Source of the DNA: Octopus sinensis
Lineage: Eukaryota
Direction: 5' to 3'
Assembly: GCF_006345805.1 (NCBI RefSeq)
Contig: NC_043002.1
Location: 87,792,001-87,856,000 of the forward strand
DNA: 64,000 bases
In this document: positions 43,812 through 44,733 of the stretch, in pieces
Layout: the number at the start of each line of letters is the position of its first letter
How positions within the stretch are numbered: the first letter of the stretch is position 1
Made by a program: the position numbers and the translations under genes
The notes under the pieces: model-generated
Told to the model about the DNA's origin: nothing
The model's database searches: none
What the model saw: only the letters and a program-made list of their open reading frames with translations

Positions 43812-44179
43812 TATGTGTATGTGTGTGTGTGTGTGGTGTGTGTGTGTGTGTATGTGTGTGTGTGTGGTGTGTGTGTGTGTGTGTGTGTTGTGTGTGTGTG
43901 TGTGTGGTGTGTGTGTGTGTGTAAAGTGACGATAAGTACTAGTAATACTACTACTAGCAATACTAGTTCGCACCAGTATTGCTAGAAGTAAGAATCAAAA
44001 CAACTCTTAGTCACGATAAAGCAATTATCATATGACTGACAAGGGAGATAAGCTCCCTACAGCTTCCGGGGCATAACCAAATCACCAGTGATAATTTATA
44101 ATTTTCACTTTTACCATTTATAAAATCAGCGGTAACTCTTATAAATTGACAAGGCGATCCAGTTTAACCCTAGGCAACT

Positions 44180-44240
44180 GGGTAAGAGGCACTGACGAGC
44201 ATTAACCAAATGCGAAATCACTGGTGATCTGGCTATGCCC
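44180..44240 (+). ncRNA. Type I hammerhead ribozyme motif with intact core
   Basis: CTGACGA 44192-44198; stem II GCATT/AATGC with loop AACCA; GAAA 44214-44217; stem III TCAC-TG-GTGA; AUC triplet (cut after 44229); interrupted stem I gggtaagaggca / tggctatgccc. Confidence 0.8.
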
Positions 44241-44496
44241 CGGAAGCTGTATGGAGGTCGCCCTACCCTTTTCAGTCATAAGATAAGTGCTTTTTCGTGG
44301 CTAAGAGTTGTTTTAACTCTTATTTCTAGCAATGTTAATGCTAACTAGTACCCTCAGATATTTTAAAAGGCGTTTGTACTTCTGCCTTTCGGTTGTAAAT
44401 TGCGAATAATATCACCATTAGTATTTAAAATTTTCACTTTTACCATTTATGAAATCAGCATAAGATTTCTACGGTAACTGACAGGGCGAGCCAGCC

Positions 44497-44557
44497 GGGT
44501 AAGAGTGACTGAGGAGCATTAATCAAATGCAAAATCCCCGGTGATCTGGCTATGCCC
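44497..44557 (+). ncRNA. Second tandem hammerhead motif, core-mutated (GAAA to AAAA)
   Basis: CTGAGGA 44509-44515, same GCATT/AATGC stem II, AAAA 44531-44534, TCCCCGGTGA-TC. It lies 317 nt downstream of the first copy. Confidence 0.65.
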
Positions 44558-44733
44558 CACAAGCTGTAAGGAGCTTGCCTCCCTTGTCAGTCAAAAAATA
44601 AGTGCTTTGTCATGGTTAAGAGTTATTTTAACTCTTATTTCTAGCAATGCTAGTGCTACCTAGTACTCTGAGACGCTATAGTGACGTTTATAGTTCTGCA
44701 TTTCGGTTGTAAATTGCGAATAAGCCACGTTTA

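Follow-up and report, generated by a model that had tools for sequence, protein, structure and literature searches.

The question raised by this locus is whether two hammerhead ribozyme motifs, lying head to tail in an intron of an Octopus sinensis gene, belong to a mobile non-coding repeat, and whether they can still cut the RNA of their host. "The window" refers throughout to the whole stretch of 64,000 nucleotides that was analysed (assembly GCF_006345805.1, contig NC_043002.1, positions 87,792,001 to 87,856,000 of the forward strand), and coordinates are those of the window. The element is very probably an old, decayed insertion of a non-coding, hammerhead-bearing repeat of 338 nt, an animal non-LTR retrozyme, likely reverse-transcribed into a microsatellite by a Penelope-like enzyme, and this copy of it is predicted to be inactive. 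What the genome sequence shows directly is that the repeat family exists and that its hammerhead covaries, together with the anatomy in two arms, the fixed position of the ends and the lesions of this copy.

The element and its host gene

The features of the locus are the following; the 'short' and 'long' 3' ends are two recurrent sites of the family described further below.

40546..40677, + strand: exon of the host GPR137-like gene upstream of the intron (spliced contigs)
43756..43921, no strand: left flank, (TA)n and then (TG)n microsatellite, the target where the inverted arm ends
about 43922-44735: whole element, two direct units and one inverted arm
43922..44092, - strand: inverted arm covering positions 137 to about 283 of the unit, with a 'short' 3' end (repeat comparison)
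about 43937-43960: 24-nt local reiteration near the outer end of the inverted arm
44093..44421, + strand: direct unit 1, a full family unit (repeat and majority-unit comparison)
44187..44234, + strand: type I hammerhead, copy 1
44187-44191/44230-44234: stem I of copy 1, G·G mismatch at 44189:44232 (pair 3)
44192-44198: core CUGACGA of copy 1
44199-44203/44209-44213: stem II of copy 1, perfect, 5 bp
44214-44217: GAAA of copy 1
44217-44228: stem III of copy 1, palindromic; AUC with C17 at 44229
44422..44735, + strand: direct unit 2, which has a deletion of 15 nt ahead of its hammerhead and terminates at the family's 'long' 3' end
44504..44551, + strand: type I hammerhead, copy 2, C17 at 44546
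44736..44778, no strand: right flank, (AT)n microsatellite
45550..45623, + strand: host exon downstream of the intron, inferred, 74 nt, AG/GT-bounded

The host is a GPR137-like gene on the + strand, whose exon 1 (11472-11891) scores 0.95 against the GPR137 N-terminal cluster (Atlas). In spliced contigs 40546-40677 is joined to 47837 onward with 79 nt between them; 45550-45623 (74 nt) together with 5 nt from 47832 fills this gap and keeps the frame. The spliced contigs skip the element, which, with the gap-filling exon, places it in an intron and in the sense orientation of the host gene, as a preliminary description of the locus had proposed. Four coding exons up to 40677 were read from open frames, and the 'intron 5' of that description would need a further short exon, presumably as in other members of the GPR137 gene family. 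An extra exon at about 43340-43444 was considered and rejected, being absent from the spliced contigs.

The two diverged direct repeats from which the element was recognized are borne out by one stretch of 91 nt at 84% identity, with a spacing of 317 nt, and a second of 93 nt at 87% identity, with a spacing of 315 nt; Tandem Repeats Finder did not report the direct units. A third, inverted arm had been overlooked: 43922-44092 is 81-85% complementary to both direct units, and its inner end lies inside the stem III palindrome. The figure of 317 nt holds for the distance between the cut sites at this locus, but not for the length of the family unit, which is 338 nt; the spacing here is that left after the 15-nt deletion in unit 2. 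Since both flanks are microsatellites, a target-site duplication cannot be read. The reiteration of a short motif at 43937-43960 (24 nt) has the appearance of slippage during or after insertion.

Two other features lie elsewhere in the window. Open frames at 15686-16627 (- strand), inside the host gene, resemble what we take to be a LINE AP-endonuclease and a CCCH-like N-terminal region, and 17109-18195 is an AT-rich minisatellite with an 87-nt period.

The repeat family

A genome search with the unit yielded 55 matches in the 40 best of its 1002 candidates; loci other than the window were 71-94% identical. An exact 33-nt anchor from the 3' half of the unit gave 40 genome matches (control, 0), which at about 8.5% divergence in that part translates very roughly into 750-1,000 arms; the family would thus have, very roughly, 1,000 copies, mostly truncated and dispersed. 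Subfamily A, which includes the window locus, has a majority unit of 338 nt. That of subfamily B is 347 nt long and 79% identical to A, and B is the commoner of the two (31 of the 40 anchor copies are nearer to it). The GC content of the majority units is 0.42-0.43, and their longest stop-to-stop frames, of 46 and 37 aa, mark the family as non-coding.

As for arrays, the search confirmed dispersed, related copies and gave no array of more than 2.02 units in 126 loci; the longest of the 190 arms in these loci is the arm of the window itself, with 2.02 units. We are therefore dealing with a dispersed family and not with a satellite-like array. Its copies have unique flanks, are truncated at the 5' end and lack an LTR, as multicopy retrotransposed elements of the non-LTR kind do. 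Mean divergence from the majority is 11% (61 segments), and 10.5% for the window arm. Core positions diverge by 8% and all others by 12%, in a sample to which core-selected loci contribute and which is biased to intact cores, so that the copies now present are decaying almost neutrally.

The assignment of the locus to a retrozyme-like family is upheld by these data: non-coding units of 338 or 347 nt, with less than 50% GC, stand head to tail, each with a type I hammerhead, and occur genome-wide. By the sequence criteria that can be applied, the family is of the metazoan non-LTR retrozyme kind.

The hammerhead at the level of the family

A degenerate core pattern gave 70 matches in the genome as against 0 for the control. 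For the analysis of pairing 59 hammerheads were aligned, 4 partial ones of 63 motif matches being left out. Paired cells make up 91% of this alignment, compared with 85% after shuffling (0 of 500 shuffles reached the observed value) and 23-40% in slid controls. Covariation of the stems among genomic copies, which had been expected of a true family, was found in all three helices: stem I has 13 double changes from C-G to U-A, stem II 13 each from G-C to A-U and from C-G to G-C, and stem III 14; this covariation rests on two to three subfamilies and hence on few independent events. The core is kept in 23 of the 59 hammerheads, and the core with all 14 pairs in 5. A type I core (CUGANGA, GAAA, NUH, three helices, helix I open) is present in the majority and in the core of copy 1, and not in copy 2. 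In folding predictions the hammerhead of the majority monomer lies within 0.2 kcal/mol of the minimum, and for each of the two majority units the fold is that of a self-paired circle (z -4.0 and -6.2). At the family level, judged by its sequences, the ribozyme is real.

Stem III stays palindromic around a 2-nt centre, and its covarying pair is kept in 59 of the 70 genome matches, across three different palindromes. With only 2 nt enclosed by this pair there is no room for a hairpin loop, and an intermolecular stem III is the simplest reading. The sequences suggest that the hammerhead is likely to act as a dimer, an obligatory dimer not being proven by them; dimeric hammerheads with an intermolecular stem III are described among metazoan and Penelope-like element (PLE) motifs (PMC4209133).

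The state of the copy in the window

Direct reading of the motifs agrees with the cut sites predicted earlier, 44229 and 44546, and with the intact core of copy 1 and the change of GAAA to AAAA in copy 2, by which G12 is lost. A strict hammerhead descriptor gave 1 match in the window and 0 in 200 block-shuffled windows. The type I fold that had been assigned to both copies holds for the motifs, but stem I is mismatched in both, and copy 2, in addition to its G·G in stem I (44507:44548), has one broken stem III pair. The Rfam hammerhead models gave no match in the window, which says little, because none was found either among the 150 of 168 matches listed for seven relatives, five of them fully intact.

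It had also been suggested that copy 1 could cut the host pre-mRNA and that the locus yields a circle of 317 nt. A live intronic ribozyme of this kind is made conceivable by the intact core, stem II and stem III of copy 1, by its sense orientation, by a predicted hammerhead fold only 1.0 kcal/mol above the minimum when copy 1 is taken in isolation, and by the presence of the intron in contigs that probably derive from RNA. Against it stands the G·G at pair 3 of stem I, whose pair probabilities in folding are 0.1 or less, compared with 0.7-0.8 for the family majority. Moreover, in the fold of the whole element the inverted arm, which would be transcribed first, is predicted to pair over stem III, the cut site and the stem I strand of copy 1 (mean probability 0.87, duplex of -169 kcal/mol). 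Copy 2 has lost G12, its hammerhead fold lies 7.6 kcal/mol above the predicted minimum, and the cut-to-cut unit of the locus does not have the self-paired fold of the family (z -0.6 as against -4.0 for the majority). The core divergence given above (8% compared with 12%, in a sample biased toward intact cores) likewise speaks against function being maintained.

The contigs point in the same direction. They come from three runs, X1-X3, which are presumed to be RNA ('probable-RNA'), none of the runs listed being recorded as such, and may be DNA, and they can show presence and not absence. The site of copy 1 is bridged in two of these runs, by contigs X1 44093-44345 and X3 44158-44359, and the site of copy 2 in one, by contig X1 44312-44723. 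With the reservation that contig depth is a weak measure, the depth of the bridging contigs (2.8-8.2) is about that of other pieces of the intron (3.6-6.4), the spliced message being at 237. No back-joint was seen among the contig matches listed in the probable-RNA runs, at a low depth and in a type of data that cannot show absence. All in all, we regard both the cutting of the GPR137-like pre-mRNA by copy 1 and the release of a 317-nt circle as very unlikely. Copy 2 is without its GAAA, the site of copy 1 is predicted to be masked and both sites are bridged by probable-RNA contigs, for which reasons this copy looks dead; it is probably inactive and is predicted not to cut the host RNA. It also falls outside the definition of an active locus as two consecutive intact hammerheads (10.64898/2026.07.22.740005), since copy 2 lacks G12 and stem I is mismatched in both copies.

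Six A>G changes at 44612-44658, in one X1 contig, fall inside the inverted-repeat duplex. A-to-I editing was considered for them and rejected: four of the six are the family majority base, five of the six are present in family contigs of a probable-DNA run, 44547-44611 is unchanged, and the contig continues into changes that are not of the editing type. The cluster is more likely to represent another allele or a chimeric contig. A separate observation concerns 44281-44314: the three probable-RNA runs X1-X3 contain a contig that belongs to a related subfamily, with a length of about 400-550 nt and a depth of 55-173; it is perhaps a copy within an expressed transcript.

Insertion ends and the nature of the template

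The ends of insertions were surveyed in 102 distinct loci, after removal of duplicates and of two paralogous copies. The 135 3' ends comprise 58 long, 37 short and 40 other ends, the long and short sites being about 50 nt apart, and 93 of the 135 run into a microsatellite, compared with 792 of 5302 background windows (15%). An inverted arm is present in 33 of the 102 loci (17 long+short, 8 long+other, 6 short+other, 2 other+other), 16 of which have at least one end outside the long and short classes. None of the 33 combines two ends that are alike, either long+long or short+short (permutation p 1e-4 and 5e-6). Automatic mapping placed the window locus in the long+other class; its inverted arm continues past the reiteration and reaches position 283, which makes it long+short.

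Truncation at the 5' end with inversion is also produced by L1 twin priming. Mobilisation by a LINE-type enzyme, or spread by duplication at the DNA level, with the Penelope likeness being incidental, could draw on this similarity and on the failure to find a homologous autonomous PLE in 30 endonuclease loci and in the candidate partner discussed below. We consider it highly improbable: there is no poly(A) tail, both outer ends are 3' ends of the element at two fixed sites and never both alike, the copies are dispersed with unique flanks, and one of them is joined to PLE coding DNA. The anatomy observed is instead that of a Penelope-type insertion, with an inverted 5'-truncated arm, an extension at one end and a microsatellite target. 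A one-sided 'tail', an inverted pseudo-LTR (pLTR), a palindrome at the inversion and a bias for microsatellites are marks of PLEs (PMC8557442, PMC3846280), and the Penelope protein initiates internally at two sites in its own RNA, both target strands being extended (PMC11167929).

The 5' extent of the arms bears on the template. The 40 arms selected with the anchor divide into 22 that extend at least 15 nt beyond the cut site, 2 whose ends lie within 5 nt of it, 1 that goes 7 nt beyond it and 15 that do not reach it. A pile-up of 5' ends at the cut site, hinted at in a score-ranked sample, was dismissed on the basis of these 2 of 40. Of 75 unit starts, 50 are preceded by a long unit end and 0 by a short one; in the other 25 the arm itself begins at this point, or the case is unclassified. 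Arms that run through the cut site and junctions of long end to start indicate that the template is not a cleaved linear monomer; to judge from these junctions, it is likely a circle or an uncut multimer. A spike of arm lengths at exactly one unit is absent from the 190 arms of 126 loci, which leaves circle and multimer unseparated, as does the distance within loci of 0.171 (n = 12) compared with 0.192 between loci (sd 0.036).

A sequence of events compatible with these results would begin with transcription of a source copy, whose RNA would be cut by the hammerhead, probably with stem III paired between two units; the unit-length pieces would then be joined into circles, or the RNA would stay an uncut multimer. 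A reverse transcriptase-endonuclease of the Neptune/Nematis type would nick both strands of a TA-rich repeat and prime at internal positions of the RNA, each strand using one of two sites that lie about 50 nt from each other. The two cDNAs may then have crossed both the cut site and the junction between units and been joined head to head, with a short inverted arm and an arm of 2.02 units as the result in the window. Near-neutral mutation would have followed, the element being spliced out with the host intron.

A Penelope-like partner

PLE endonuclease domains are plentiful in the genome (5029 candidates, of which 150 were scored), and many of those scored have a cysteine linker. This linker is assigned to Neptune and Nematis (PMC8557442). 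Comparison of the unit with 30 GIY-YIG endonuclease loci gave no shared sequence, apart from one 20-nt match with an E of 0.09, and 12 wider loci around a loop-II variant gave no linked ORF. An autonomous element sharing sequence with the unit was not found in the 30 endonuclease loci or in the 3' region of the candidate partner.

This candidate is a PLE family (814 candidates, 74-82% identity) that adjoins members of the retrozyme family three times, at L212, L005 and L235. At L212 a family piece is joined seamlessly to a 5'-truncated PLE fragment of the Neptune/Nematis type in the same sense, and opposite the retrozyme the arm terminates in 3' ends of PLEs; at L005 and L235 the candidate PLE lies across a short microsatellite from a retrozyme copy. 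A rough chance expectation of such neighbours is about 0.1 for L212 and L005 and 0.04 for L235, with the caveat that shared targets would also enrich them. The likeness between the terminus of the candidate and the long end of the unit is limited to 13 nt (E 1.9). Judged on sequence, this PLE family is a lead as partner and not a result. The link to Penelope mobilisation as such has come out stronger than was originally claimed, through the two-armed ends, the microsatellite targets and the one PLE join.

The L212 composite (L212:2263-4960, G000:C7 near 87.54 Mb) consists of a retrozyme arm, then an inverted retrozyme piece joined directly to the 5'-truncated PLE, and continues with a truncated PLE from a second family, which runs out into (TA)n. 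A possible origin is template switching within a single event; as a single case, the join could also stem from serial insertion and deletion. A more specific scheme may be put forward tentatively, as one that we hold to be possible and yet doubtful. The family would be an RNA circle of one unit, and the hammerhead that cuts it would be obligately dimeric, with a 12-bp intermolecular stem III. A Neptune/Nematis-type Penelope reverse transcriptase would prime on this circle at two fixed internal sites, one for each target strand, and copy it through the ligated cut site. L212 would then be a switch of that enzyme between its own RNA and the family RNA, and would name the mobilising family.

A closer kinship with PLEs is conceivable, in which the unit is the pLTR of an autonomous Penelope-like element and the copies are the 5'-truncated ends of that element, not an independent non-autonomous family. 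The anatomy is indeed the same as that of PLE ends, PLE pLTRs carry type I hammerheads (PMC4209133), and the hammerhead of the unit sits between a donor-like motif and a pyrimidine-CAG acceptor-like motif, recalling the Penelope pLTR intron. However, where a unit start has further sequence upstream, this is the end of another unit (the 50 of 75 starts given above), the screened loci contain no ORF that continues into a unit start, and nearby PLE coding matches either lie on the strand opposite to the main arm or come from families that have 3' ends of their own. The single ORF with reverse transcriptase and GIY-YIG domains between pLTRs that defines an autonomous PLE was found neither in the unit nor running into it in these loci. 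We thus judge this origin unlikely and retain the reading of a non-autonomous retrozyme family.

Some further observations concern these motifs and PLEs in general. The donor-like motif lies 77-82 nt before the cut site (about 44150 in the window) and is perfect in subfamily B, the acceptor-like motif lies 28-45 nt after it (about 44260-44275), and no spliced form across the pair was seen. A PLE family in L215-L244 has in its 3' region a minimal hammerhead-like motif, in which stem III is palindromic and the first core strand is non-standard. In the window itself, a fragment of a PLE GIY-YIG endonuclease (54783-55010, - strand, 49% to L043) adjoins a long TA repeat.

Comparison with known systems

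As a dead intronic repeat, the locus is itself of little weight. The family adds support, at the level of sequence, for the mobilisation of animal retrozymes by Penelope-like enzymes, a link proposed mainly from co-occurrence and pLTR homology, and it supplies a testable set: two priming sites, a candidate partner PLE of similar divergence and similar 3' terminus, and five intact hammerheads. A literature search, in which subscription journals were mostly outside coverage, returned no paper on cephalopod retrozymes.

Metazoan non-LTR retrozymes were described by Cervera and de la Pena in 2020 (PMC7229834), with a mussel family of 350-390 bp. The octopus family shares with them non-coding units that measure a few hundred nt and each contain a single type I hammerhead, a GC content of 42-43%, the head-to-tail arrangement and a predicted self-paired circle. 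It differs in that no array of more than 2.02 units was seen, in its dispersed, mostly truncated copies that are about 11% decayed, in being known here from sequence alone, and in its two-armed microsatellite insertions; the words 'inverted' and 'microsatellite' have 0 occurrences in the main text of PMC7229834.

Li, Clavereau and Pollet (2026; 10.64898/2026.07.22.740005) propose that retrozymes are of PLE origin and mobilised by PLEs. They place 44% of Xenopus copies in introns and report that 8 of the 9 dimers they tested did not cleave. They argue from co-occurrence and pLTR homology in vertebrates, whereas the octopus evidence is the anatomy of insertions, no pLTR homologue having been found; and the intact hammerhead that they require in all units is lacking at the octopus locus.

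In anatomy the family resembles the EN+ PLEs, Penelope/Poseidon, Neptune, Nematis and Naiad (PMC8557442, PMC3846280, PMC4209133, PMC11167929), which have the same partial tandem with an inverted 5'-truncated arm, extension at one end, palindrome at the inversion junction, TA or microsatellite targets and type I hammerhead with a palindromic helix III. The octopus family differs from these elements in having no ORF, in an extension of about 45-55 nt as against the published 30-40, and in a longer helix III, with a 12-nt palindrome where 1-2 bp are usual.
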